Source: a virus
Lineage: Duplodnaviria; Caudoviricetes
Direction: 5' to 3' (one strand)
DNA: 64,000 bases
Virus record (IMG/VR): IMGVR_UViG_3300017492_000173
Location: 3,925-67,924 of that record
The position numbers and the translations under genes are program-made. The notes under the pieces were generated by a model that was not told the DNA's origin, searched no databases, and saw nothing but the letters and a program-made list of their open reading frames with translations. Of this stretch, positions 3,868 through 49,852 are shown piece after piece; the stretch's first letter is position 1, and each line of letters starts with the position of its first letter.

Positions 3868-4196
3868 CAGCCTATGTAAACTTTCAGTTGGTGCTTGTAC
3901 GGTCGGGTGTTTATGACTTTCAGAATATACTCCTGTCCCTCGCGCAACAATTTTACCTTAACCCCTTTTTCGATAACGCCGACAAGCAAAGGACTCACGT
4001 AAACGATGAATGTAAAATGGTGGTCTTCACCATCCTCATAAATGACATCCGTTGCCTTCGTAGTGGGGACTGCATCGCACACCCAGCCTCCGACCCATTC
4101 GGTGGTGCCTGCGTGGTAGTTGCCGTTCTCATCCTCATAGCCGCCAGTTTCCTGCTCGGCGTAGAGGACATGCCTGCGCATTTCAACTATTGCCAT
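3867..4196 (-). CDS. Head-tail adaptor/closure protein (putative)
   Basis: 109 aa starting with GGYEDENGNY; synteny. Confidence 0.55.
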   Translation of the reverse strand: MAIVEMRRHVLYAEQETGGYEDENGNYHAGTTEWVGGWVCDAVPTTKATDVIYEDGEDHHFTFIVYVSPLLVGVIEKGVKVKLLREGQEYILKVINTRPYKHQLKVYIG

Positions 4197-7059: not shown

Positions 7060-7120
7060 CAAATATACGTAACTTTATCGTAAAGTAAATACACCTTTAC
7101 GAAACTTTATTGTATTTTTG
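7060..7120. promoter_or_regulatory. Divergent Bacteroidetes-type promoters for the scaffold operon and the portal operon
   Basis: Minus-strand TATATTTG at 7060-7067 and plus-strand TATTTTTG at 7113-7120 match the TAnnTTTG -7 box. Confidence 0.55.
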
Positions 7121-7138
7121 TCGCAAAATCTTCGTTTT

Positions 7139-8614
7139 ATGGCAGATATACAGGAAATTCTTACCCAAACACCCAACGCAGCGATTAATTTACTGCGCCA
7201 AAAGTCCATAGACATACCGTCATGGGCAAGGCTCTTGAAGGACTATGAGCCTAAGTTCCACAAAATAATGCACGACCACATCGCCCGCAAGGACAAGGTG
7301 CGCAAGGACAAGCAAGGCAACGTCATCGCCATAGAGCCTGCGGCGCGAATATCCTTCGGGCTTGAACGCCTGCTCGTCCACCGCATGTCAGAATTTATGT
7401 TCACGACACCTGTGCGCCGCCTTTACCACAACATAAACGGCAGCAGGCAGCGGCAAGAGATAACAAAAGCCATCGAGGCTGTCTACAAGGTCGCCCGCAT
7501 CGACACCGAGAACCTCAAACGTGCATCGCTCTATTTCTCCACCTGCGAGCTGTTCACGCTTTGGTACACCGTGCGCCGCAAAAACAGCGTCTACGGCTTT
7601 GACTCCCACTACAAGCTGAAATGCAAGACCTTCTCCCCGATGGACGGAACGCGCCTGTGGCCTCTCATTGACGAGTATGGCGAGATGTCCGCAATGTCAT
7701 TGGAATACTACGTCCAGTCCGGGCTTGACCGCATATATTACTTCGAGACCTACACCGACTCCGCACGCATAAAGTGGCGTTTGGAGGGCAGCGAGTGGAA
7801 AGAGATAGACCGCAACCCCGACATTCAGCTGATGAAAATCCCTGGTGTCTATGTCTATCGTAACCGCCCCATCTGGGATGGCCTTACCGTGATACGGGAG
7901 GAAATAGAATATACCATGTCTCGTAACTCCGATGTGATAGCCTACAACTCCGCACCAGTGCTTAAAGTTGCCGGAATGGTCAAAGGCGTGGAGGACAAAG
8001 GCGAGACGCGGCGTGTCTATCGTGTGGAGAATGGAGGCGACGTGTCTTACGTTTCTTGGACGCAAGCAATCGAAGCCCTTAAATACCACGTTACCACGCT
8101 CCTCAATATGTTCTGGTCTCAGGCGCAGATGCCCGACATCTCCTTTGACAACATGAAAGACCTCGGCAACATAGGCTTTGACGCACGGCAGACACTCCTC
8201 ACTGACGCACACCTCAAAGTCGGCGACGAGGCAGGCGTGTGGATAGAAGCCCTTGAGCGTGAGGGCAACGTCATTAAGGCCTTCCTCAAACTTATGAAAC
8301 CCGAATGGTCAGATGACCTTGACGCTATCGACATTGAACACATCATAACTCCGTTCATACAAAACAATGAGACTTCGGAGGCAGACCGCATACTCAAGCT
8401 CAACGGCAACAAGCCCGTGATGTCCCATCTCGAATCCATACAATACGCAGGTTACTCCACAGACCCCGAAACAACCCTCAAACAAATACAGGAGGAAGAG
8501 AAGATAGATTCTTCTACTCGTGCTATCCGTGTGCAAGGCATTGACAGCGCAACGGTCTCGGAGCAGATAAACGGCACCCAAACCACATCCGAGGGCAACA
8601 ATACCGAGGAATGA
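7139..8614 (+). CDS. Portal protein, SPP1 Gp6-like
   Basis: ~490 aa with LLKDYEPKFHKIM, SDVIAYNSAPVL and YVSWTQAIEALK; followed by the minor head gene. ATG at 7139 preferred. Confidence 0.85.
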   Translation: MADIQEILTQTPNAAINLLRQKSIDIPSWARLLKDYEPKFHKIMHDHIARKDKVRKDKQGNVIAIEPAARISFGLERLLVHRMSEFMFTTPVRRLYHNINGSRQRQEITKAIEAVYKVARIDTENLKRASLYFSTCELFTLWYTVRRKNSVYGFDSHYKLKCKTFSPMDGTRLWPLIDEYGEMSAMSLEYYVQSGLDRIYYFETYTDSARIKWRLEGSEWKEIDRNPDIQLMKIPGVYVYRNRPIWDGLTVIREEIEYTMSRNSDVIAYNSAPVLKVAGMVKGVEDKGETRRVYRVENGGDVSYVSWTQAIEALKYHVTTLLNMFWSQAQMPDISFDNMKDLGNIGFDARQTLLTDAHLKVGDEAGVWIEALEREGNVIKAFLKLMKPEWSDDLDAIDIEHIITPFIQNNETSEADRILKLNGNKPVMSHLESIQYAGYSTDPETTLKQIQEEEKIDSSTRAIRVQGIDSATVSEQINGTQTTSEGNNTEE

Positions 8615-8719
8615 AAATTCTTTCACAGGACTTCATGTTTTCGTCCGACCCGATAAGTTGTGCGGCGAGGGCGTGAAGTCCTTTCATACGCAACGCAAAC
8701 CGCCAAAATCCTAATCGTG

Positions 8720-9691
8720 ATGATTGACATAGCCGCAAAACAGCAGCAAGATTACACAAACCTCAATACAAGGCTCAACCAATACGCCACCAAACTGCAA
8801 CTCCTTATCGACGACCTCATAACCGAAGTCGTTACAATCGTTACGTCCTCACCAACATACCCCTCATACTTCACCCTCGACAGCGACCGCATAGAACGAC
8901 TGCTTGAGGACTACTCCCTTTCCGTGAACACCCTAATCACCAACGGACAATCAGCCGAGTGGTCTGCCGCCAACCTCGCCACCGACATTCTCGTGAACAG
9001 CGTAATTGAGGAATACCTTGACTTTATCTCCCCCACACGCCGTGCAGCCTATTTCCTCGTGAACGCAGACGCTCTCGCAGCGTTCCAAAGACGCACCCTG
9101 TCAGGTCTCGCTCTCTCCGGCCGTATATGGGATATAGCAAAGGACTTCCGCACACAGCTCACCGCAACCATAGCGCACGCCATACAGAACGGCACATCTT
9201 CCGTAAACCTCTCACGCCAAGTCCGAGACCTCATAGCAAAACCCGACACCGTGCAACGCTCCTACCGAAACATCAGCGACACTCACGCCATAACAATGCG
9301 ACTCGCTCGCTCCGAGATAAACATGGCATACCGCACAGCGGAACAGACACGGTGGAGACAACTCGACTTCATCGTAGGCTACCAAATACTGCTATCACAC
9401 CGACACCCCAAGACCGACATCTGCGACCGACTTAAAGGCAAATACCCAAAATCTTTCGTTTGGACGGGGTGGCACCCCTGCGACCTCTGCTTCTGCATAC
9501 CCATACTCAAAACAGAAAAAGAACTCTGGGCGGTGGACTATAACGACATTCAATCCACCGCATCCGTCAACGAAATTACAGACCTGCCTCAAAACTTCAA
9601 ATCCTACATAAACGAGAATAAAGCCAAAATAAACAATATGAAGTCAAAACCTTACTTCATCACTGATAATCCTCAATTCGTTAAGCTATAA
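8720..9691 (+). CDS. Minor head/head morphogenesis protein (SPP1 gp7/Mu F-like)
   Basis: RLARSEINMAYR...HP..DICD.LKGKYPK.F.WTGWHP.C.C signature. The ORF track start is 8660; ATG 8720 is preferred. Confidence 0.8.
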   Translation: MIDIAAKQQQDYTNLNTRLNQYATKLQLLIDDLITEVVTIVTSSPTYPSYFTLDSDRIERLLEDYSLSVNTLITNGQSAEWSAANLATDILVNSVIEEYLDFISPTRRAAYFLVNADALAAFQRRTLSGLALSGRIWDIAKDFRTQLTATIAHAIQNGTSSVNLSRQVRDLIAKPDTVQRSYRNISDTHAITMRLARSEINMAYRTAEQTRWRQLDFIVGYQILLSHRHPKTDICDRLKGKYPKSFVWTGWHPCDLCFCIPILKTEKELWAVDYNDIQSTASVNEITDLPQNFKSYINENKAKINNMKSKPYFITDNPQFVKL

Positions 9692-10756
9692 AAACATATA
9701 TCTCACGCCTGCCCAATTAACAAATTCTACCTACACCCCAACAAAAGAAAAGAGAGAAAAAGAGAATAGAAAAGAAAAGACGAAAGAAAAACAAAACAGA
9801 AAAAGAAATTGCCTTTCCCCCCCACCCCCATACTATAAAGAAAAAGAATAAAGAAAAAGAAAGAAGAAAAGATAAAGACAAGAGATTAAAGAGAGAAAAT
9901 AAAACCTTTGTCAGTTTTAACACGAGTTAACATATTTTTGACACAAAAGTTAAAATCATTTTCCTTTACAAACACACCCTTGCACAGAGCCAAACTTCTT
10001 TTTATCTTATCCTATCCAAAATTTTACCCCAAGATATTTTTCCTAACACCCTTCCGTAAAAACCAAATCCCCATACAAAACACCTCACGCATAGGCGACC
10101 TCATATACATACCACTCCCAAAAATTCAACCCGGAAAATTTTTGCCTACACACCTCCATTACTTACACTTTCCAAAAATTTGCGCCAAATATTTTTCAGA
10201 ATGCCTTTCCCATAAACCCAAATCCCGTATCGCAACACTTATCAGATAAAAGCCAAATAGGGTATTTAAAATCACCGAAAATTTGGAGACGGGGTTTATA
10301 AATCATCAAAAATTTAGAGATGGGTGGGGCTGGGCGTTTTGGGGGTATCGGATTGTAAACAAATATCGCATCGGGGGGGGCGTTGTCAGGGAGGGGCGGC
10401 ACGATTGACGGCGGCGCGGCGGCAAATAGAGCCGTTCACGGCGTTAATTCGTTGGCGGTGGTAAGGTAGCAAGGGCGCAAGGAGAAAGCCCCGCCACGGC
10501 AAAGGAAACGAGTAAAGCGGCGGTGGTGGGAGGTGGCAGGGGAGGACAAAGAGCAAAAGCCGTTTTATTTCGTTTGTATCGTGTTAAATTGTGGGCAGGT
10601 AGATAGTTGCACGGCAAAAGGGAGAAAAGCCACCAAAACGGAAACAAAGGGGCAAATAAGGGGTGTTTGCGGTTTAAAGTGTGCAAGCGGACAAACGACA
10701 AACAACGGGTGCAAATTGCATCCGCCGGAAATGATACGCAGCATATAGGGAGGGGC

Positions 10757-10787
10757 AAAGAAAAACCCCGCCGGAGTGTGGCGGGGT
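10757..10787 (-). terminator. Intrinsic terminator after ORF 10809-11441
   Basis: ACCCCGCC-N7-GGCGGGGT stem, followed by TTTTTCTTT on the minus strand. Confidence 0.7.
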
Positions 10788-10808
10788 CGTTGGTGGTGGG
10801 ATATAATG

Positions 10809-11441
10809 TTATTTCACCGTTTTAATTTTGGTTTGTTTCAGCGTTTTAGCGTCCGTTTCAAAAGTCAGGAAATCGGCGTTTTCCGTATAAAGTACCATTG
10901 CATTAGTTAGCGCGGCACGGTTTGCAGGTAGGTTTTTGCAGCGGTATTGTTTCACGGTTGCCGCCGTTGTTTTGGCCGCGGTTTTTGTGGCGGGTTTTGC
11001 GGGTTTTCCCGTTGCGGTGTCCGTTGCCGCCGTTTTGTCCGTTTTGGCGGGTTTTTCAACGGGGGCGCAAGCACGCCAACAATAGGCGTTCAACCCGTCA
11101 CACATTATAGATAATATGCCATCATCAATTACGGGATGCAATTTGTTTGCGGTTTTGTTCGTGCCAAAGTCGGTATTGGATTTGTCAAGTTTTTTACCGT
11201 TGGTAACGTTGGCAATTTCGGCGGGTATTGCATCCATGTTTACACCGTTAGCAATTTCGCCGCGTAACATTCGCGTAAGGTCGTATATTTGGCGGCGTGC
11301 GCGTTTGCGGTCGTCAACCGTCCAAGATGTAACGATTTCCAAACCATTGGCGGCGGCAGTTTCCGCGTTCCAAACGTTTTCCAGTGTTGCAACATTTTCA
11401 ACCATGTTTTTTGACGTTGCGAAATAAATGTTAGTTGTCAT
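10809..11441 (-). CDS. Hypothetical protein, 210 aa, with an Ala/Thr/Lys-rich linker
   Basis: Open frame with its own promoter (TATCTTTG at 11527-11534) and terminator. No family recognised. Confidence 0.7.
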   Translation of the reverse strand: MTTNIYFATSKNMVENVATLENVWNAETAAANGLEIVTSWTVDDRKRARRQIYDLTRMLRGEIANGVNMDAIPAEIANVTNGKKLDKSNTDFGTNKTANKLHPVIDDGILSIMCDGLNAYCWRACAPVEKPAKTDKTAATDTATGKPAKPATKTAAKTTAATVKQYRCKNLPANRAALTNAMVLYTENADFLTFETDAKTLKQTKIKTVK

Positions 11442-11715
11442 AATATTGTGGCGGTTGTATATATCCGAGCCGCCAAGTTTTTAAAGTGAATAATTATAAA
11501 TGTTTGTTTGTCATTGATTGACGATGCAAAGATACGGCGAAATATTTAACCGCGCAAGAGATTTTTTGCGTTTAACATTACATTAACACGTTTTTAACAA
11601 TCATATTTTTGTAAATCATTTTATTTCAGTTATTTACGTTTTAGGTGTTAATGCAATATCTTTTTTGCGGTTTGTCGTTTTTTTGCCGTAAATTTGCGGC
11701 GGTAAATATATATAT

Positions 11716-12027
11716 ATGAATATAAGCACCCGTATTATCGAGTTAATGAAGGCGCACGGCACCACAATTTCCGACATTGCCCGCCGCGTGAACGTGCCAC
11801 GGCAAAGTATATCGCAGGCAATTTGTGCCAACCGTTTCAGTTTTGCGACATTAGAACGTATTGCCAACGGTTTAGGCGTTCCGTTGTGGTTGTTGTTCGT
11901 GTCGGAGGCGGAGGCGTTGCAATACATTCAGGCGCACCAGCCAGCGGCACCCACCGCCAGCACGCCCGCCATTTGCCCACATTGTGGCAAACCGTTGGTA
12001 ATCAGTATCACAACCGCCGTGGAGTGA
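11716..12027 (+). CDS. XRE/Cro-type HTH regulator with C-terminal CPHCG zinc-ribbon half-motif
   Basis: RIIELMKAHGTTISDIARRVNVPRQSISQAI...LERIANGLGVPLWLLF HTH, then ICPHCGKPL. Promoter TTTG-N21-TAAATTTG at 11664-11696. Confidence 0.8.
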   Translation: MNISTRIIELMKAHGTTISDIARRVNVPRQSISQAICANRFSFATLERIANGLGVPLWLLFVSEAEALQYIQAHQPAAPTASTPAICPHCGKPLVISITTAVE

Positions 12028-12441
12028 TTTCGTCTCTCCTCTACGCTCCTCTGCTGTCTCATGCTTTGCCGCCAGAAAAGGGTTCGCCTCTTGCCTGTTT
12101 ACGCTGCCGTTTTGACAAATAAACGGATTGATTTTAACATTTTCGATTTCTTGCTCCAAAAACCGAAAAACAGAACAATTACCCCTATTTCGAGGGTGTT
12201 TTCTCGGGAATTTTGTTGCCACGTAAAAATATTTTACAGAAAAACAGAACAATCACGACTATTAAAAGGTAAAGTATCTTGATTTTCACTTTTTCAATTT
12301 TAACATTTCGCCCAAACGCAGCCCCAAGCCTCGCAAATCGCCGATTTCAAACCCGATTTTCACCCAAATCCCCACTTACTCTTCCTCGTACCTTAACCAC
12401 ACATTCCAACCACCTAAAACCATTCCTTGAAAATATCTTAC

Positions 12442-12524
12442 AAATCCGACTTTTAGAACACCGTTTTCGGTCTAACCCCCGTGATTTTCGAGACCCAAAG
12501 CCTAAAAATCCGACTTTTAGAACA
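12442..12524 (+). repeat. 19-bp direct repeat AAATCCGACTTTTAGAACA, two copies
   Basis: Identical copies at 12442-12460 and 12506-12524. Confidence 0.85.
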
Positions 12525-12686
12525 TTCTCGCTTCCTCAAACTAACGCCTTCTCCTCCCTCCGCATTCCGAAATCGCCCATCCTTATCCCAACCCATAGAC
12601 ACCCTCCCACACCACAGCCTTATATCGAAGCATTATACATAGTATAATACTACAATATAAAAATCTTCGCTGCCGAAGTTTCTTTC

Positions 12687-12788
12687 CTGCGCTCACTTTT
12701 TCTTCGCTGCGCTGGAAATATCTCCTCTGCGCTCGCGTCATATTATCTTTGCTGCGCTAACCATATCCGCATTTATCTTCTCTGCACT
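12687..12788 (+). repeat. Phased CTGCGCT repeats
   Basis: CTGCGCT at 12687, 12707, 12727 and 12752, plus CTGCACT at 12782. Confidence 0.8.
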
Positions 12789-13702
12789 GATACATTGAAT
12801 ATCTCCCAAGCTTCACTGCCATAATCTGACATTCCTCCCGATTTTATATTGAATATCTTGTTTAACTATTTGCTGTAACTCGTTGATTATCTTTTTTTTA
12901 AAGACTTTTACAGACACGAAGCCGTATTTTCTTTCCTGCACATTTTCAAGGCGTGAAAAGGTCGTTATTTCGTGTTTTCTTTGTGTTTTAGGCTGTTGCG
13001 TATTTTTTGTGTATGCTGTTTCCTGTCTGTATGTTTTTTGCTTTTCCGCTTTGTTTTCAGTATATTGTCTGCATACAAAAAGTATTTTGGTTGTTATTTC
13101 ATCTTTACTTTTGTGTGTTTTATGTGCTGTTGGAAGTGTGTATATTATCTTTGTCGTATCTTTGTTTTATTGTGTGATGTTTAGTTTAGGTGTATTTAGG
13201 TATAATTCTTTGTTAGTCCTTAGGAATTGCGCATTAAATCTTTTTTATTCGCGTGTTGTTTTGTTGTTGTTTGTGTCTATATGTTGTATATATGCCGCCG
13301 AAGGGTTGGGTGTGTTTTGCTGTTGGTTCTGTTCTGATCAGAGATGGTTGTCGGGTCGTGTTTGGCTTTCCTTTGTCTTTGTGGTTAGTGTCGGGAGTTT
13401 TTTTGTTTCGGGTTCTCCGTCTGTGTGCTTGTGTTTTTTGCCAAGCTTTTGGTTTTTGTGGTCTATAAAATTATTGAGAGTTTCTTTTCTCCTTATGCGG
13501 TTTAATGTGCCGTGGTCGGATTCTTTTCTGCCGCCGAAGGGTGCAGCGTTTCTTTTCTCCGTTTTGGAGTGATGTCGTTTTGGGGCAGACCTCCTTGGAT
13601 TGCATGTACAAAGATAGTGAAAATCTGCGAGTTGCGCAAATCTTCACTACCTTATTTTTGTAAGTTTTTATTAATCTTCGTCCGAATGCGTCTATGGGGT
13701 CT

Positions 13703-14017
13703 TTAGCCAAGACAATAGAGACAAATTGAATCTCGACCTTTTCGCAGTTCCACATCGGGACGATAGCCAGCGGCCCACCTTATATCCTCATCGCTATCGT
13801 TGTCGTACACCACGCCGACAAATTCATCGCTTAAGTATTCAGCCTTTGTGCCGAAATTTGTAGTTACCTTCCAGTCATCAAGGTTCAAGCCTAAATTGTA
13901 CGCAATCCAATCCATGCCACGGCGATTTTCTGGATAACGCGCAGGTTCTACAAGTGCGACATTTTCATTGGTGAGACCTTCAGTCAACATCATTTGGATA
14001 AATTCTATTCTTTTCAT
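13703..14017 (-). CDS. Hypothetical protein
   Basis: ORF MKRIEF... downstream of promoter TACCTTTG at 14055-14062. Confidence 0.65.
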   Translation of the reverse strand: MKRIEFIQMMLTEGLTNENVALVEPARYPENRRGMDWIAYNLGLNLDDWKVTTNFGTKAEYLSDEFVGVVYDNDSDEDIRWAAGYRPDVELRKGRDSICLYCLG

Positions 14018-14164
14018 AATCGTATTGTTTAATTGTTTATAAATATTTACGTTGCAAAGGTACAACCAACCTACCGCATGTGTCTTTAAGCCTTTGGGGA
14101 AGATTTTTCGTTAACACCATTTTACAATTAGGTTTAGAGTTCACCGTTTAGCAGGGAACGCAAC

Positions 14165-14219
14165 AAAAGAGCGGCTGCGGTAGAAGTCGTTTTTCTTCGA
14201 TATGACTTCATCGCAGCCG
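14165..14219 (-). terminator. Long hairpin/terminator after ardC
   Basis: CGGCTGCG..GAAGTC / GACTTC..CGCAGCCG inverted repeat with a T-tract on the minus strand. Confidence 0.6.
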
Positions 14220-14262
14220 TTTCGTGATAGTATGATAAGGCAGCATTTTTCGCTGCGTTACA

Positions 14263-15324
14263 CTAAACGTTTGCCATACATTCTTTTTCAGCGTTTACCT
14301 TGATATTGTCAAGTTTCTCCGTTATCATATAAGCGGCACGTTTCACATCCAACAACACCGTCTTTATGAATTTCGGGTTCTCATGCAACGCATCAAGCCA
14401 ATTCTTCAAATAGGCAGCGGAGTCTTCCTTGAGGTGTTTGGCTATTCCATAGCGTGTAGCCACCAGCGCAGCTCCCATCTCAGCCACGAGTTCCTCACGG
14501 GCGTATTCTTTCTTGTCGCCATTACCCTTGAAACGGTCAAGCCGTGTCTTCGCTCCTGTGCTATGTATCATCTCATGCAGGCAGGTGGTGTACCAATCCT
14601 CGCCACATGGGAATTGTTCCTTTATGGGCATCACGATTTCGTCTTTCGTCAGTGAGTAATACGCCTTGTCTTGATATTGTGGCTTTATCGGACACAGCCA
14701 TTTCTCTCTGTATATCATCTCGTCCATCGGCTCAAAGGTGAAATCGTCCCTGTTCTCAAGTTGTTTCGGCGTGTTCTCGTTCAGTATTTTCTCATACATT
14801 TCGGGTCGTGCTTCCTTGAGGTTCGTCTGTTCGATATTGAAGACGTTATACACCTGCATACGAGGATAGACATCGTATTTGTCCTTTTCCTCCTGCGAGA
14901 GTTGCTTGTACACTTCGTATTTGATTTTTTCCTTTGTTTCCTTGTTCACTACCGTATATGTGGTAAGGAAGATAGAAAACGACTTCTCTCCCTTGATAAT
15001 ATGCACCTTTGGAAGCTCATTGCCGTCAGCGTCAAGTTTTTTCTTCCATTTATCGCCTACCTTTGTGAAGTTCATGTAGCTCATGGTGTCGAAAGTACAG
15101 AACACGGGTATCTTATAGCCTTTATCCTCACAATGCAACATCAACATAAAGGCGTTCATGCATCCGTACTCCCTGCCGTAAAGATTCTTCGGCCACACAC
15201 TGCCGTCCGCGAACCACGGTTTCTTCCAATCGCCGCTTATCGTTTCGATTTTCTCAATCATTTTGTTGGTGAACAATTCCAACGCCCTATCCTCGGCGGA
15301 GGGCTTGTTTTCATTCTTTTTCAT
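14263..15324 (-). CDS. ardC: ArdC-family antirestriction protein (ssDNA-binding domain + zincin metallopeptidase)
   Basis: WKKPW, P.NLYGREY.C.NAF.L, YNVFNIEQT, AYYS...DEI.MP...QF, HEMIHSTG and YAREELVAEMGAA motifs. Confidence 0.9.
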   Translation of the reverse strand: MKKNENKPSAEDRALELFTNKMIEKIETISGDWKKPWFADGSVWPKNLYGREYGCMNAFMLMLHCEDKGYKIPVFCTFDTMSYMNFTKVGDKWKKKLDADGNELPKVHIIKGEKSFSIFLTTYTVVNKETKEKIKYEVYKQLSQEEKDKYDVYPRMQVYNVFNIEQTNLKEARPEMYEKILNENTPKQLENRDDFTFEPMDEMIYREKWLCPIKPQYQDKAYYSLTKDEIVMPIKEQFPCGEDWYTTCLHEMIHSTGAKTRLDRFKGNGDKKEYAREELVAEMGAALVATRYGIAKHLKEDSAAYLKNWLDALHENPKFIKTVLLDVKRAAYMITEKLDNIKVNAEKECMANV

Positions 15325-18526: not shown

Positions 18527-20023
18527 TCAATCCTCCTTGAATAAATCCGTCTGCGTTTCTTGTTTCCTCTTTCTTGACGGTTTCGGGGTTTTCTTCGGCA
18601 ACGCCCAGCCTTTCGCCTTTGCGCACTCGTAGTTGAACTTAAACCACACGTCCTCATCCAAGAACTCGAAGTGCATCGTGCCTTTCTTGTAGCCCTTGCA
18701 GCGGAAGAAGCCCCAATCAAACCATTCTCCCCAAAAGCGATGCCAACTGCCATATTCCAAAACACTCCATAAGCTGCCTACTTGGGAATAGTCCGTCCCA
18801 GTTATATAGCAAAGAGCCTTTGTCACATCGTCCAACTTATTGGAGAAGCCTCCGTAATCCAGCTTGACATACGGTTCGGGATTGTGGCAATAATCATAAC
18901 CCTTGCACACATGCGGAACGATGAACTTCCTGTTCACCATGTAGTTGGCGTTGGTCTTCCACTTCTCGCCCGCCGTGCTGTTCTCCGCCGAGAAGGAGCA
19001 TATCAAGTCGAAAGCGTCCGACAACGCCGTCTTCATCCTCTGGCCGTTTGTCCCCACGATGACCTCAAGCATACGGTACACGTTCCTCATCGTGAACGGT
19101 ATGTTGCTCTGCTGCTCGATGAACTTGTTGAGCTGCTGCCGCAAGGTCTCGGTGGAGTATTTCTCCATGTTGAGCTTGTTGAAGATTATGCGCCAGTAGT
19201 ACTTTTGCAGCTCCTTCTTGTACTGGGCGTGCGTCACGGTGGTCTCGTGTCCTTGCGCCGTGACCGCCGTGAACTTTATGGGCGGGTAGCCATACTTCGA
19301 GTCATCTGCTTTCGCCGTCTCGTTTATCTTGTCTGCCATTTCCTTCACGGTGTCGAACATCTTGACTGCCGAGGCGTAGCGGTTTACGAGGTCTCGAACC
19401 ACGTTGTACTCCATGAGTCCGGGCTGCGTGTTGCTGTTGTCGTCCTCGTCAAACTCCGAGAAGAAGTAGCCGTCGAACTCGTTATCGCCGCTGCCCTCCT
19501 TGTAGAGCTTGACGAGAGACACTTCGCAGCCAGTCCTCCGCTCCGCCGTCTTGAACGCATCGCCGAGGCTTTCGCTCCGTCCGTACAGTTCGATGAGTTC
19601 CTTCAGCCTGTCGTATTTTTGGTTCTTGTACCAGCTGCTGTGATAGAGGTTGTCCGAGTTGCACAACGCCGTTATCACGCACCCTGCGGGAGCTATTTCC
19701 CATGCGTGGATGATATGCTCCGCGCCGTGGCTGAACGGCGGGTTCATCACTATCTGGTTGACGTGGCTCACCTGCTCCGCCGTGACGGTGAGGAAGTCGT
19801 CGGCTATTATCTCGCACTTGCCGTCGAGCAGCCTCCGTATGTTCGGGTCGTTCTCGCAGGCTATGACCGCCGCTCCGTGACCTTTCAGCCAGTCCACGAT
19901 GTTCCCTTTTCCGGCGGACGGCTCAAGTATCGTCTGCCCTACTGTTTCCTCGCCCATCATCATCTGTTCGATGACCTCATCGGGCGTGGGGTAGAAGTCG
20001 GGGTTGTCTGTAAAAAGTTTCAT
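18527..20023 (-). CDS. N6-adenine DNA methyltransferase fused to a DUF4942-like domain
   Basis: DFYPTP, ILEPSAGKG (motif I), IVMNPPF (motif IV), and C-terminal WGFFRCKGYKKGTMHFEF typical of DUF4942. Confidence 0.85.
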   Translation of the reverse strand: MKLFTDNPDFYPTPDEVIEQMMMGEETVGQTILEPSAGKGNIVDWLKGHGAAVIACENDPNIRRLLDGKCEIIADDFLTVTAEQVSHVNQIVMNPPFSHGAEHIIHAWEIAPAGCVITALCNSDNLYHSSWYKNQKYDRLKELIELYGRSESLGDAFKTAERRTGCEVSLVKLYKEGSGDNEFDGYFFSEFDEDDNSNTQPGLMEYNVVRDLVNRYASAVKMFDTVKEMADKINETAKADDSKYGYPPIKFTAVTAQGHETTVTHAQYKKELQKYYWRIIFNKLNMEKYSTETLRQQLNKFIEQQSNIPFTMRNVYRMLEVIVGTNGQRMKTALSDAFDLICSFSAENSTAGEKWKTNANYMVNRKFIVPHVCKGYDYCHNPEPYVKLDYGGFSNKLDDVTKALCYITGTDYSQVGSLWSVLEYGSWHRFWGEWFDWGFFRCKGYKKGTMHFEFLDEDVWFKFNYECAKAKGWALPKKTPKPSRKRKQETQTDLFKED

Positions 20024-27577: not shown

Positions 27578-27617
27578 AAGCGACCCACAGACTAAAACAA
27601 TGTCTGTTGGGTCGCTT
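27578..27617. terminator. Hairpin between convergent genes (likely bidirectional terminator)
   Basis: AAGCGACCCACAGAC / GTCTGTTGGGTCGCTT inverted repeat overlapping the MTase stop. Confidence 0.6.
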
Positions 27618-28344
27618 CACTTTTTATGCGTTCAATAGCCACATTATAGAATTTCTCCAGCTTCTCTATCCCGATGTACTTTCTTTCAAGCCGCATGGCC
27701 GCTATAGCTGTTGTTCCAGAGCCTAAGAAAGGGTCAAGTACCACATCGCCCTGCTTTGTGGATAGGTTGATTAGACGAGAGAACAACTCCACAGGCTTTT
27801 GTGTCGGATGCAACTTTCTCTTCACGCACGGGAAGTGCATCACCCTGTTGTAACACTCGTTGTCATCCACCTTGTTCAACGCCGTGCCGTTGTCATAGAT
27901 ACGGACAATGAACTCCACGTTCTGCGAGAAACGGCTTTTGCTGATAATGGTCAATGGTTTCTCCCAAAGCAAGAGAGAGAACTTGAAGCCATGCTCCTCC
28001 GCCCATAGCGCATAGATTGGTATCTGCGCTTCCGAACACATGATGTAAGCGTTCATCTTCTTCATCAGACGGACAGCCTTGTCAAGCCACTTGTAGATTT
28101 CATCCTTTGTGAAACCTGCTTTGATACGGCAGTCGCCTGTCTCATCCTCATAGTCATACAAGGCAGATTTCGACATTAGCTTCTTCGAGGTTTCCTTGTA
28201 CATTTTCGTGCAGTTGGACTTCGTGAAATTATATGGTGGGTCTGTGAGTATAAGGCTGATGCTGTACGCTGGCAAATCGTCCATCACATCGAGGTTGTCA
28301 CCAAAGTAAACCTCGCTCTTCTTTATCTCGTTGTAATGCTTCAT
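27592..28344 (-). CDS. Orphan N4/N6 DNA methyltransferase (beta class)
   Basis: LILTDPPY (motif IV) precedes HPTQKP and VLDPFLGSGTT (motif I). Confidence 0.9.
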   Translation of the reverse strand: MKHYNEIKKSEVYFGDNLDVMDDLPAYSISLILTDPPYNFTKSNCTKMYKETSKKLMSKSALYDYEDETGDCRIKAGFTKDEIYKWLDKAVRLMKKMNAYIMCSEAQIPIYALWAEEHGFKFSLLLWEKPLTIISKSRFSQNVEFIVRIYDNGTALNKVDDNECYNRVMHFPCVKRKLHPTQKPVELFSRLINLSTKQGDVVLDPFLGSGTTAIAAMRLERKYIGIEKLEKFYNVAIERIKSEATQQTLF

Positions 28345-45714: not shown

Positions 45715-47079
45715 TTATTTCAGACCATATAAAGCCTTGACCTCGTCTTGGCGGTTGTATGACTTGTTGTTCGGCAGCTTTAGATTGAATTCATAATCCA
45801 CTGCCCATCGGTATTCCTCGTCTGATAGCTCCTTTGTCTTGAATGCTCCGAAGCCCCAGTAGCCGCCTTTGTGGTAGCGCATGAATGTCTGGAAACCGAA
45901 GCGCTCGATTATCTTATCTACGTTCTCTTGGGTGAGGAACTTTTGGAAGAACCACTGTCCCTCGCGCATTATGGACGTCAGTCCGTTCTCGTCAAAGAAC
46001 TTCACTGTGATGTAGTCTGAAGAGTTGCGTTTGAGGTTAAGCTCCTTCTTCGCATATTCCATGGACCGCCCCGACGCATAGATGCGCCCTCCCATCTTTG
46101 TGAACAGGTTGAGGCACATGAACACCGCGTCTTCCGCTTCCTGCGTGTTCACGGAGTTCACCACCGCGTCGCAGATGGTCACATCGAACTTGCCGTTGGC
46201 TTTCACCGTGGCGATGAAGTGGTCTATCATCTCGTGGCCCTTCTCAATGGAAATCCCCTTCGTGTTGTGGTTGAAGAACTCCAGCCCTATGGCGTTCTTG
46301 AAATTGAGCTGCTTGCGGAGCTTTGTGATGAACATCGCCTTTCCGCAGCCAAAGTCAAGAATATGGATTTTCTTTCGGTCAACCTCATCGCTTGTAAGAT
46401 ACGGAACTATTTCCCTGTAAAGGACAGACCAGTCTATGCCCCCATGACGAGGCGGCTGCGCCAGACCCTGCACAAAGTCCTCACGTTCAATGTGCTCATA
46501 GTTGAACACGCCGTAGTCCTGCTTGAAGTAATAGTCGAACATCTGCCGATACTCCTCTCCGAGGAAGTATGCGTGAACCTTAAACCCCGTCGCTTTTGCC
46601 GCCTGCAGGTAGTTATTGCCGAATACCACCTCGTCCCCGATGACAATGGCGCAAAGAGCGTCGCCATAACGAACCATGAGCTGGCACATGTCCTTCACGA
46701 CAGACGCAACGCTGTCCTTGATGTCGAAGTCCTCAATGGGAATGTCATCATAGAAAGTGCCTGTTGGTCTTGGCTTTAGGCAAACGCTATGCTCCTTCGG
46801 CTCAAGCTCAACGCCATTGTGTATCTGGTTGAACATCACTTCCGACTCTATGTCTATGCCGCTGACATAGTAGCATGGGGCTTCCTCCAGCCCGATGGCG
46901 GTCGCTGCTTTGGTGCGCTGGTGGCCAGCCACTATCGTCATGTTGTCCTTGTTCACGATTATCGGCAGTATGAAGCCCAACGTCTTGAGACTGCCCTGCA
47001 GCTCCTTGAACGCTGCCTCGCTTATTCTTCTCGGATTGTATGACGCGGGCTTGATGTCTTTGAATTTTACGATTTCCAT
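45715..47079 (-). CDS. ParB/Srx-like domain(s) fused to a class I SAM-dependent transferase
   Basis: PASYNPRRI...IVAGHQR (ParB-like); ILDFGCGK (SAM motif I); strand-4 motif DAVVNSV in place of [DNS]PP[YF]. Confidence 0.8.
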   Translation of the reverse strand: MEIVKFKDIKPASYNPRRISEAAFKELQGSLKTLGFILPIIVNKDNMTIVAGHQRTKAATAIGLEEAPCYYVSGIDIESEVMFNQIHNGVELEPKEHSVCLKPRPTGTFYDDIPIEDFDIKDSVASVVKDMCQLMVRYGDALCAIVIGDEVVFGNNYLQAAKATGFKVHAYFLGEEYRQMFDYYFKQDYGVFNYEHIEREDFVQGLAQPPRHGGIDWSVLYREIVPYLTSDEVDRKKIHILDFGCGKAMFITKLRKQLNFKNAIGLEFFNHNTKGISIEKGHEMIDHFIATVKANGKFDVTICDAVVNSVNTQEAEDAVFMCLNLFTKMGGRIYASGRSMEYAKKELNLKRNSSDYITVKFFDENGLTSIMREGQWFFQKFLTQENVDKIIERFGFQTFMRYHKGGYWGFGAFKTKELSDEEYRWAVDYEFNLKLPNNKSYNRQDEVKALYGLK

Positions 47080-47092
47080 ATCTTATGTATTT

Positions 47093-47812
47093 TTATATTG
47101 GCAGCTCGTCCTCTGGGGCTTGTTCCACAATGGTTTCCACCCGCATCCCCTTCGCTTCAAGCAAAGACTTGACAAATCCGTAGTTCACACCCATTTGGTC
47201 GATGTAGTCATTGTAACGTTTGACAAGCACATCGTACTCCTCCTTTGTCGTTGAGCAGACGTTCTTCCCAAAAGTCAGCATATTGCACTTGATGGGTGTC
47301 GCCCCCTTTATCTTGGTCACCACATTCTCGTCCTCGTCAGGATTATAGAAAATGCTCTCGTCCATGCCGAAATTTATGAGGTTCACATCATCGTACAAGT
47401 GAAGCAGCTTGTCATAATCGAACTCCCCGTATTCTTGGTTGTCCTTGATGACAAGCTCTTTCTCCTCTTCCTCCGACAAATCCACCACGGTGACATCTGC
47501 CGTCGGATTCGCGGTCCACTCTTTCCAGTAGTCCACGACCTTCTCCCTCTGCGTCTCGGTCATTGACTGCCATTTCTCGTTCTCTTGGAGCACCACCATC
47601 CAGTCTATGGATGTTGTGTTGACTATTTCCTTTAGAACCGCAGTACGTTGGTTGCCTGCAAGGACAACGTTCTTCTTGTTCACGATGATGTCACGCACTC
47701 CGAGCATCTTTGGGAATAGCATGATGCTCTGCTGGAGTCTCAGTTTCTGTTCCGACGTGATTTTCCGTGGATTAATGGGGTTTATAACCAAATCAACAAT
47801 ATTCCTTTTCAT
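47093..47812 (-). CDS. ParB/Srx-like protein
   Basis: INPINPRKI, VLAGNQR, KDNQEYGE. Confidence 0.75.
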   Translation of the reverse strand: MKRNIVDLVINPINPRKITSEQKLRLQQSIMLFPKMLGVRDIIVNKKNVVLAGNQRTAVLKEIVNTTSIDWMVVLQENEKWQSMTETQREKVVDYWKEWTANPTADVTVVDLSEEEEKELVIKDNQEYGEFDYDKLLHLYDDVNLINFGMDESIFYNPDEDENVVTKIKGATPIKCNMLTFGKNVCSTTKEEYDVLVKRYNDYIDQMGVNYGFVKSLLEAKGMRVETIVEQAPEDELPI

Positions 47813-49117: not shown

Positions 49118-49852
49118 TCAGTCTTTCACGGCAAGCATGGCACAGAAATTAAGGTAACGCCAAAACGTGTCTATCTTGCGGAAGCCCGCTGTCTTCAACA
49201 GGTTCTCGTTCATCTGCGCCGTGAGCGGCACAAGCGAGCCTTCAAGACTTCTCCTTTTGAATTTGATTTGCTCCTCCGTATATTGGTTCTCGCGCTTCAA
49301 GTCGTAGTATTCGCCCACCAGCACCTTGTCAATGTCATAGCTGTTGCCCATGACCTTTTCCACCAAGACCAACGCGCCGCCACGCTCAAGCGAGTCATAT
49401 ATGCTCTTGAAGATGAACTGGCGGTATTCTATCGGCGTGAATTGGATTGTCAGGCAAGAGAGGATGAGGGAGCAGCCTTTCACGGGCAACCCCTCACGCA
49501 GGTCGCTGTACTTGACGCTCACATACCCTTCCCTTATCTCTGATGAATATCTCTTCCTGCACTCCTCTATCATCGGCTCGCTGACATCGGTCAAGACGAA
49601 ATTGCACTTTGAGCCGAAACGCTCTATCAACAGTTCCGAAGAAGCCCCTACCGAGCACCCGATGTCAAGCACGTTAGTTCCCTCCCTGACGAAGTTACGG
49701 GCCATGCGGAAAACAAGGTCGCGCATGCTCTCATAATTCGGTATGGAACGAGACAGCATGTCATTGAAGACATTCGTCACTTCCTCGTTGAACTGCCACT
49801 TGCCTGTCTGTATGACGGCATCATGGCTTGGATTCCTCTCTATCCTGCACAT
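49118..49852 (-). CDS. cmoA: CmoA-like carboxy-S-adenosylmethionine synthase
   Basis: WQFNEEVTNVFNDMLSRSIPNYE, VLDIGCSVGA, LTIQF, GGALVLVEK, YYDLKRENQYTEEQIKFKRRSLE and AGF...FW...NF track CmoA along its whole length. Confidence 0.8.
   Translation of the reverse strand: MCRIERNPSHDAVIQTGKWQFNEEVTNVFNDMLSRSIPNYESMRDLVFRMARNFVREGTNVLDIGCSVGASSELLIERFGSKCNFVLTDVSEPMIEECRKRYSSEIREGYVSVKYSDLREGLPVKGCSLILSCLTIQFTPIEYRQFIFKSIYDSLERGGALVLVEKVMGNSYDIDKVLVGEYYDLKRENQYTEEQIKFKRRSLEGSLVPLTAQMNENLLKTAGFRKIDTFWRYLNFCAMLAVKD

Follow-up and report, generated by a model that had tools for sequence, protein, structure and literature searches.

The chlorovirus enzymes Nt.CviQII, which nicks R^AG, and M.CviQII, which methylates AG, are virus encoded, read exactly AG, and act on the strand that carries it (PMC3017599; PMC3299994), showing that a two-letter, strand-specific DNA reader is biologically real. 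They act genome-wide on host DNA, and no protected island on one strand has been described for them. We analyzed a 64,000-nucleotide (nt) stretch of DNA (positions 3,925 to 67,924 of IMG/VR record IMGVR_UViG_3300017492_000173; here, the window) from a Caudoviricetes phage, in a record classed as a provirus and estimated to be 72% complete. In this stretch, the dinucleotide CT is essentially absent from one strand for 1.7 kb around two divergent genes, one without an assigned family (gene X) and one encoding a helix-turn-helix (HTH) regulator. Over this island, selection excludes one dinucleotide in a strand-polar manner, namely AG on the sense strand of gene X. Unlike in chloroviruses, no homologue of the CviQII enzymes was identified in the phage.

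Other described systems share parts of this pattern. The orientation bias of EcoP15I sites in T7 and restriction-site avoidance reflect selection on short words in phage DNA, with an effect of strand orientation, but those cases concern sites of 4 to 6 nt across whole genomes, whereas here a 2-nt word is gone from one strand of a 1.3- to 2.2-kb module and is enriched beside it. ACA-less mRNAs, which survive MazF, and the T4 RegB/GGAG system resemble the island in that a short word is fully absent at the expense of codon choice; in those systems, the absence brings immunity to a nuclease. There, the unit is a single transcript, whereas here the void lies on one DNA strand across divergent genes, DNA upstream of a promoter, and DNA past a terminator. 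DnaG initiation words offer a template dinucleotide, CT, that is recognized with strand polarity, and ssi-restricted priming (ColE1, pAMbeta1, and IncQ origins) keeps priming of a displaced strand to a set zone beside an origin, but no known origin shows kilobase-scale loss of the primase word, and the flank of the phage island is origin-like by sequence. A literature search found no paper describing the kilobase-scale absence of a dinucleotide from one strand, and to our knowledge no two-base strand-polar reader has been reported for Bacteroidota or their phages. We rate a one-strand dinucleotide void with a mirror domain as categorically new, with its mechanism unproven.

By the convention used here, 5'-CT-3' on the plus strand of the window is 5'-AG-3' on the minus strand, which is the sense strand for gene X (the X-sense strand). 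Within the void (10332 to 12033; 1,702 nt; A401 C336 G474 T491), the plus strand holds one CT against 96.9 expected from base composition, and 2,000 mononucleotide shuffles averaged 97.0 ± 7.4 and never fell below 69. The other counts on this strand are 79 for AG (112 expected), 53 for GA (112 expected), and 229 for TT (142 expected); CA, CC, and CG are not depleted, CG being enriched 1.55-fold, and G exceeds C and T exceeds A. The single CT divides the void into CT-free runs of 1,330 nt (10330 to 11660) and 374 nt (11660 to 12034), and no other CT gap in the window or in the whole 67,924-bp genome record exceeds 128 nt, the length of the next longest. CT density is normal on the left until 10330 and returns abruptly on the right at 12034, with 13 CTs in the following 100 nt. 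Genome-wide, both AG and CT are ordinary (observed/expected ratios [O/E] of 0.94 and 0.93). The original prediction, made by reading the letters, had given this interval with a single CT where roughly a hundred were expected, a ban limited to one strand, a CT-free plus-strand promoter, and an abrupt return of CT at 12034, and all of this agrees with the computed counts. A low-complexity tract was rejected as the cause of the void, since all four bases stand at 20 to 29% and 97 CTs were expected for 1 observed. Two nearby voids, of GG (9535 to 10094) and of AC (13107 to 13589), are mostly compositional, with only 6.0 and 7.6 occurrences expected. The features of the island and its right-hand neighbor are as follows.

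10332 to 12033, plus strand: void, without CT (minus strand without AG), with one exception at 11660 to 11661
10332 to 10808: non-coding core of the void, G-rich on the plus strand, with a G run at 10373 to 10380 and more G tracts
10764 to 10788, minus strand: intrinsic terminator of gene X, with a T run after a 9-bp stem that includes 7 GC pairs; the hairpin is kept in close relatives
10809 to 11441, minus strand: gene X, 210 amino acids (aa), no Pfam or PHROG family, 0 AG in the mRNA sense
11508 to 11534, minus strand: promoter region of X, a palindrome-like TTGTCATTGATTGACG and then a -7 box (CAAAGATA on the plus strand, TATCTTTG in the X sense)
11660 to 11661, plus strand: the single CT, in the spacer between the two divergent promoters
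11689 to 11696, plus strand: -7-type box of the HTH gene, TAAATTTG, a CT-free variant of the TAnCTTTG form common elsewhere in the genome
11716 to 12027, plus strand: HTH_3/XRE-type regulator, 103 aa, with a C-terminal CxxC...CPHCGK tail; 0 CT on the sense strand (z = -5.4)
12034 to 12900: adjoining repeat domain, pyrimidine- and CT-rich on the plus strand, purine- and AG-rich on the X-sense strand

X has few homologues, and wherever a contig carries one of full length, it also carries the void, always with the X-sense strand as the one that lacks AG. These contigs come from IMG/VR (L001 and L003), from four Logan runs (L082, L083, L084, and L086), and from JGI (L085). The occurrence of the same void in seven independent assemblies from three sources led us to reject a sequencing or assembly artifact.

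L001: 92% X identity to the window; void of ~1,330 nt, 5 exceptions
L082: 90% X identity; void of 1,325 nt, 0 exceptions
L084: 68% X identity; 4 exceptions in a 1,284-nt contig
L085: 47% X identity; void of 1,308 nt, 0 exceptions
L003: 37% X identity; void of ~1,600 nt, ~18 exceptions
L083: 36% X identity; void of 1,368 + 440 nt, 1 exception
L086: 33% X identity; void of at least 2,194 nt, 0 exceptions, reaching the contig end

Thus, the X-sense strand carries 0 to 1 AG over 1.3 to 2.2 kb in the window and four relatives and more in L001, L084, and L003 (up to ~18), and on the complementary strand of the voids AG stands at 0.65 to 0.76 of expectation. The lone exception in L083 lies upstream of the -7 box of X. 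In four lineages, the right boundary of the void falls within ~20 nt of the HTH stop codon. The L001/L082 lineage carries another HTH gene in place of that one, and there the void boundary coincides with the homology breakpoint; between window positions 11652 to 12032 and L001 positions 12990 to 14003, the 103-aa CT-free HTH gene with the CPHCGK tail is exchanged for a CT-rich, 189-aa double-HTH gene, with sharp breakpoints at the void boundary. No HTH gene was called beside X in L085, where the void begins ~250 nt upstream of X. The space after X in L083, L085, and L086 holds differing small X-sense open reading frames (ORFs) with their own terminators, all of them AG-free.

A scanner for voids of all 16 dinucleotides (800-nt windows; observed at most 0.15 times expected; expected at least 25) was applied to ~2 Mb of phage and viral DNA in total. 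Among 85 related-phage sequences (~1.6 Mb), only X-carrying loci were flagged, and the loci of 78 more distant relatives were negative. In 0.4 Mb of unrelated viral contigs, whose control loci came from an exact-motif scan for a 19-mer repeat of the phage (chance matches plus the already known contig), the scanner flagged only that known contig and one CpG-depleted sequence. Alignment searches with X in metagenome_contigs and genome_contigs returned no further relatives, a similarity search of 9600 to 13700 against 50,697 phage records gave no match, and Rfam models found nothing above noise in 9000 to 14500.

The void overrides codon choice in both genes. Back-translation with genome codon usage predicts 37.0 ± 4.6 AGs (minimum, 22) in the minus-strand gene X and 16.7 ± 3.0 CTs (minimum, 7) in the plus-strand HTH gene, and none is observed in either. 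Shuffling each gene's own synonymous codons still leaves 9.9 AGs expected in X and 5.0 CTs in the HTH gene. Lys, Glu, and Gln in X are encoded only by AAA, GAA, and CAA. Although 30% of X codons end in A and 35% begin with G, A|G codon junctions number 0 against 22 expected. The protein sequence itself is constrained, in that none of the 33 Lys/Glu/Gln residues precedes Ala, Gly, Val, Asp, or Glu, where 11 such pairs are expected; no G-initial codon follows these residues because their alternative codons contain AG. The same rules for A|G junctions and for Lys/Glu/Gln hold in all X homologues. In X codons that precede a G-initial codon, C, T, and G take the place of A at the third position proportionately, which argues against a single mutational direction.

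Divergence among relatives gives a measure of how the constraint persists. The island aligned between the window and L001 holds 114 substitutions, which created 5 new CTs (all in L001, through several different substitution types) against ~15 in simulations (P = 0.0025). AG stays near zero at a synonymous distance (dS) of 0.77, and the seven relatives together have 2 AGs in their non-coding cores, where 131 would be expected, and 9 in their X genes, where the expectation is 326. These results show that the constraint is old, maintained by selection, still active, and stronger than protein preferences. The absent A|G junctions and Lys/Glu/Gln pairs support a large cost per AG site.

We asked whether the void could correspond to one transcript. 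It spans divergent genes, such that X mRNA lacks AG and HTH mRNA lacks CU; in L001, L082, and L085, it reaches 125 to 185 nt upstream of the only recognizable -7 box of X; and it extends ~430 nt past the strong intrinsic terminator of X into the non-coding core, the strictest CT-free part in every relative. Since it covers both gene orientations, DNA upstream of the X promoter, DNA past the terminator, and variable small ORFs, the constraint acts on one DNA strand and not on any one annotated mRNA. The central claim of the original prediction, a DNA-level constraint on one strand that is not a matter of codon usage, therefore holds across both gene orientations, non-coding DNA, promoter-upstream DNA, relatives, and an ongoing purge. 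Two of the checks that it had named, a count against a codon-based expectation (0 against 37.0 AGs and 0 against 16.7 CTs for the two genes) and a look for relatives that contain CT freely, gave the same answer, relatives with a full-length X having kept the void. Beyond that prediction, the void is a family trait with a strict non-coding core, a CT-enriched mirror domain, and a constrained protein sequence.

The domain to the right of the void, ~1 kb long, is 61 to 69% A+G on the X-sense strand and is built of repeats that recur across the family. These are GCGCAGnnAAGATA iterons (5 to 8 copies, ~20 nt apart), a 19-mer GTTCTAAAAGTCGGATTT (2 to 3 copies), and CAGAGAGGAAT(A/G)TGCG units. The iteron includes a rightward -7-box-like TATCTTTG.

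12034 to 12900 in the window, 4300 to 5263 in L083, 4400 to 5307 in L085, 1 to 973 in L086, and 12590 to 13700 in L003: repeat arrays, kept across relatives that are otherwise unalignable
Beside the HTH stop codon: CTC/TCT-rich units
~12440 and ~12504: 19-mer AAATCCGACTTTTAGAAC, 2 copies in the window
~12663 to 12790: iterons TATCTTnnCTGCGC, ~6 copies in the window

With its conserved iterons, 19-mer repeats, and AT-rich DNA, the array looks like an origin, a pac site, or a centromere-type array; the replication genes are ~45 kb away. The enrichment extends to coding sequence, as the replacement HTH gene that lies in the CT-rich domain has 71 CTs against 45 expected at the synonymous level in L001 (z = +5.8) and 61 against 34 in L082 (z = +6.6). 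By the same statistic, 57 ORFs of the window's genome average a z of 0.27 ± 1.83 (maximum, 3.1), and X stands at -8.2. The non-coding DNA after the HTH gene of L001/L082 type is equally CT-rich. The same word on the same strand is thus banned left of the boundary and favored right of it, with a sharp reversal of sign, which fits a signal better than a mutational by-product.

A strong purge of two bases from one strand with a reversal of sign calls for a reader that recognizes two bases, distinguishes the strands, and has a large effect at each site, and we infer that some enzyme acts on one DNA strand at AG/CT with such an effect. Our first choice, at a probability of roughly 0.3, is a strand-specific AG-type nicking or base-modifying activity. 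An R^AG or AG-type strand-breaking or base-modifying activity would be supplied by the phage's own modification- or nuclease-domain genes. Its repertoire of DNA-modification genes is unusually large, with at least three methyltransferase-like genes, and of its ParB-type nuclease-domain genes one passes the Pfam cutoff and a second is recognized by PHROG. No HNH domain, integrase, reverse transcriptase, or primase family was found in the record, which is 72% complete.

18527 to 20023: DUF4942 methyltransferase-like gene, in the early operon
27592 to 28344: N6/N4-type methyltransferase
45715 to 47079: ParB_N-methyltransferase fusion
47093 to 47812: ParB-like gene, PHROG match only
49118 to 49852: methyltransferase-fold gene, CmoA according to the original prediction

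Under this scheme, the X-sense strand of the island, being without sites, would be neither nicked nor modified, and it would form one unbroken, "naked" stretch between the repeat array and the poly-C tract at the far end of the void, whereas in the array the same strand would be saturated with sites. We can only speculate on the purpose, the weakest part of the proposal. The island might provide an uninterrupted, unmodified template strand through a regulatory module beside an origin- or pac-like cis array, or synthesis from 3' ends made in the array might run through it without interruption. A tentative broader possibility, somewhat short of even odds, is that the AG-dense array and the AG-free island form one device in a previously undescribed polar DNA-reading process, in which array sites would give nicks, primer starts, or modified bases and the island would serve as a run-off zone in which that strand is out of reach; the outcome would be an extended single strand of the regulatory module, uninterrupted or displaced. 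Several points weigh against a nicking or modifying enzyme. No enzyme of the phage or host is shown or predicted to recognize AG/CT, AG and CT are not unusual genome-wide (O/E, 0.94 and 0.93), and the scheme gives no account of why only the X/HTH module needs protection. Some relatives tolerate sites (5 in L001 and ~18 in L003). Foreign codon usage could account for part of the CT enrichment of the L001/L082 HTH gene, and the AG enrichment of the array, once its purine richness is allowed for, is uneven (O/E, 0.94 to 1.6).

Other explanations account for some of these observations. DnaG-type primases start pppA-G on the template 5'-CT-3' (CTG in E. coli and CTA in Firmicutes), and at ColE1, pAMbeta1, and IncQ-type origins priming of the displaced strand is confined to ssi sites. 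By analogy, the plus strand of the island could not be primed and the CT-rich array would be a dense priming zone, so that the island is copied in one piece or its displaced plus strand stays single stranded. Both the dinucleotide and the strand polarity suit a primase template word, and the general principle that a primase recognizes a trinucleotide and then synthesizes a dinucleotide has published support (PMC6163395). The flank has the iterons, repeated 19-mer, and AT-rich DNA of an origin, and the G tracts and poly-G run on the plus strand at the far end could halt synthesis on that template. Neither a DnaG-type nor a PrimPol primase was found in the record, which does encode a DnaD-like helicase loader, and the phage would accordingly rely on the primase of its host, although in a record only 72% complete a phage primase may have been missed. 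We nevertheless consider such an exclusion of primer starts unlikely, as an extra priming site, with only a few percent used, should cost little and is ill-suited to a purge that overrides protein sequence. Moreover, ordinary DNA already has a CT every ~16 nt, so that enrichment in the array adds little, the replication genes are ~45 kb distant, and no known origin shows such a void. The cost per site would be high if the reader acted on RNA, where a single cut inactivates an mRNA. HEPN RNases such as Cas13 orthologues have known dinucleotide preferences, and an AG-free leftward transcript (the X operon plus HTH antisense) could escape an AG-cutting endoribonuclease, or a CU-free rightward transcript its equivalent, with X still made when a host abortive-infection or phage host-shutoff enzyme destroys other RNA, much as ACA-less mRNAs do with MazF. 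Consistent with this, most of the void is one X-sense operon of X and variable AG-free small ORFs (L083, L085, and L086), and the exceptions in the window and L083 fall outside both annotated mRNAs. However, the opposite HTH mRNA is CU-free but not AG-free, so that an unseen antisense transcript must be assumed; the void reaches 125 to 185 nt upstream of the only recognizable X promoter in three lineages and is strictest ~430 nt past a strong terminator; and the model gives no role to the synonymous CT enrichment that the L001/L082 HTH gene shows on its sense strand. An AG-cutting RNase explains the strength of the purge and not its extent, and we regard it as quite unlikely.

A region- and strand-targeted mutator could instead have removed CT, for example by CT-to-TT deamination of an exposed plus strand, perhaps in an R-loop that the G-rich plus strand would favor, with the genes adapting to what remained. 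The TT excess (+88) nearly matches the missing CT (-96), G exceeds C and T exceeds A on the plus strand, AG-to-AA or CT-to-TT changes never make stop codons in either gene, and the sharp edges and near-absolute absence resemble RIP or APOBEC editing. However, the DNA deaminases known so far are guided by the base 5' of their target C and not by a 3' T, and other C-initial dinucleotides are intact, with CG in excess. Replacement of third-position A before G codons in no one direction, the origin of L001 CTs through several substitution types, the CT enrichment next door, which would go unexplained, and the failure to find a reverse transcriptase in a record that is 72% complete make such hypermutation improbable. 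Restriction avoidance in first-entering DNA, as in the pre-early region of T5, was one of three alternatives in the original prediction and is the weakest of them, and we consider it very improbable. The data fit both of the others, an exposed strand that avoids priming or an ssDNA nuclease and freedom from a CT/AG modification or nicking activity of the phage, and do not separate them. Removing CT from one strand deletes all palindromic sites containing AG or CT and leaves asymmetric AG sites in one orientation only, a logic with precedent in T7 and EcoP15I, and anti-restriction-type genes are nearby (ArdC-like, 14263 to 15324; methyltransferase-like, 18527 to 20023). However, GATC, GGCC, CCGG, GCGC, TCGA, and other palindromes remain available, no set of sites requires that every CT be lost from one strand regardless of context, and the purge extends into non-coding DNA and across codon junctions, much farther than any plausible list of sites would require. 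Nor is there evidence of a genome end at the island, the record being a provirus fragment, and the adjoining enrichment is again left unexplained. A minority share of the probability, comparable to that of a serious contender, goes to mechanisms beyond those listed here.

Identifying the reader, whether it is a nickase, a modification enzyme, a primase rule, or an RNase, would add a player in phage replication, regulation, or defense and could yield a frequent-cutting, strand-specific enzyme as a tool. If array and island do form one device, it would be a natural analogue of a strand-displacement cassette, a new type of phage origin, or an immunity insulator, and it would point to dinucleotide-specific activities as a general, unrecognized class in phage-host conflicts. 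Since the void signature is simple to calculate, further examples can be sought in databases.

Gene X is a real gene, as its ratio of nonsynonymous to synonymous substitution rates (dN/dS) against relatives is 0.12 to 0.38. Its product consists of three parts: a conserved basic helix (KRARR..D..R.LRG) marks the N-terminal domain, a low-complexity Thr/Lys/Ala linker follows, and the C-terminal domain has a beta-alpha-beta-beta-alpha arrangement. In searches with an AF2 model (pLDDT, 73.6), Foldseek against PDB gave nothing below an E value of 0.3 and just weak KH/ACT-like rows, and VIA-align matched the C-terminal ferredoxin-like domain only (Z ≤ 4.6); a profile search against PDB sequences returned no match and ESM Atlas no usable match. 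A distant homologue of the N-terminal domain, P0009 (L087:83-850), is fused to an HNH nuclease domain (PF01844), and its locus has no dinucleotide void. The basic helix and this fusion suggest that the N-terminal domain of X binds nucleic acid. A link between the void and the protein domain itself was rejected, because homologues with the N-terminal domain only (P0009, P0010, and P0011) sit in ordinary DNA; the void is thus a property of the locus, not of the protein fold. The X promoter block ATGTTTGTTTGTCATTGATTGACGnTGCAAAGnTA (11508 to 11534, with sites in L001, L082, and L083) is almost invariant even in L083, where X identity is 36 to 42% by two aligners, and it contains a GTCA-N5-TGAC palindrome that is probably an operator.

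From left to right, the region comprises head genes, the portal and MuF-like genes, a polypurine and G-poor flank, the void, the pyrimidine-rich array, a T/G-rich stretch, and a leftward early operon that includes ArdC-like, MutS-domain-I, and methyltransferase-like genes. The -7 boxes of this phage have the form TAnnTTTG, which we take to be the typical form of Bacteroidota promoters, and the phage is of Bacteroidota type.

7118 to 8614, plus strand: portal gene
8660 to 9691, plus strand: MuF-like gene
9720 to 10331: left flank, a plus-strand polypurine tract (9720 to 9900) and then a G-poor stretch with repeated (C/G)AAAATTT(G) motifs

At the far end of the void (10340 to 10400), the window and relatives share a conserved element that reads, in the X sense, poly-C (8 to 11 residues), 5 to 10 nt, a ATTTGTTTAC-like motif, ~10 nt, and CCCCC. 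The void terminates 30 to 50 nt past the poly-C/ATTTGTTTAC-like element, which is not obvious in L083, and the plus strand of this region can form G-quadruplexes. Both flanks (9720 to 9900 and 12034 to 12900) are pyrimidine-rich in the direction out of the island, T-rich and with C well above G. By published criteria for zones of Rho-dependent termination (PMC13323073), their composition would allow them to act as Rho-dependent transcriptional insulators of the island. Avoidance of Rho was rejected as the cause of the void, as CC and UC remain and the X-sense RNA has an excess of C. To the right of the array, a 229-aa ORF (12883 to 13572) sits in a T/G-rich non-coding stretch nearly without A and C, which includes the AC void at 13107 to 13589, and is almost certainly spurious; a shorter AC gap is conserved in L001. 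To the left, the portal and MuF-like genes (7139 to 9691, plus strand) are CT-enriched (z = +3.1 and +2.5) and AG-depleted (z = -3.8 and -3.7) at the synonymous level under genome codon usage. Plus-strand genes farther from the void show no CT enrichment, and that of the portal and MuF-like genes may be a weaker, left-hand counterpart of the CT-rich domain.

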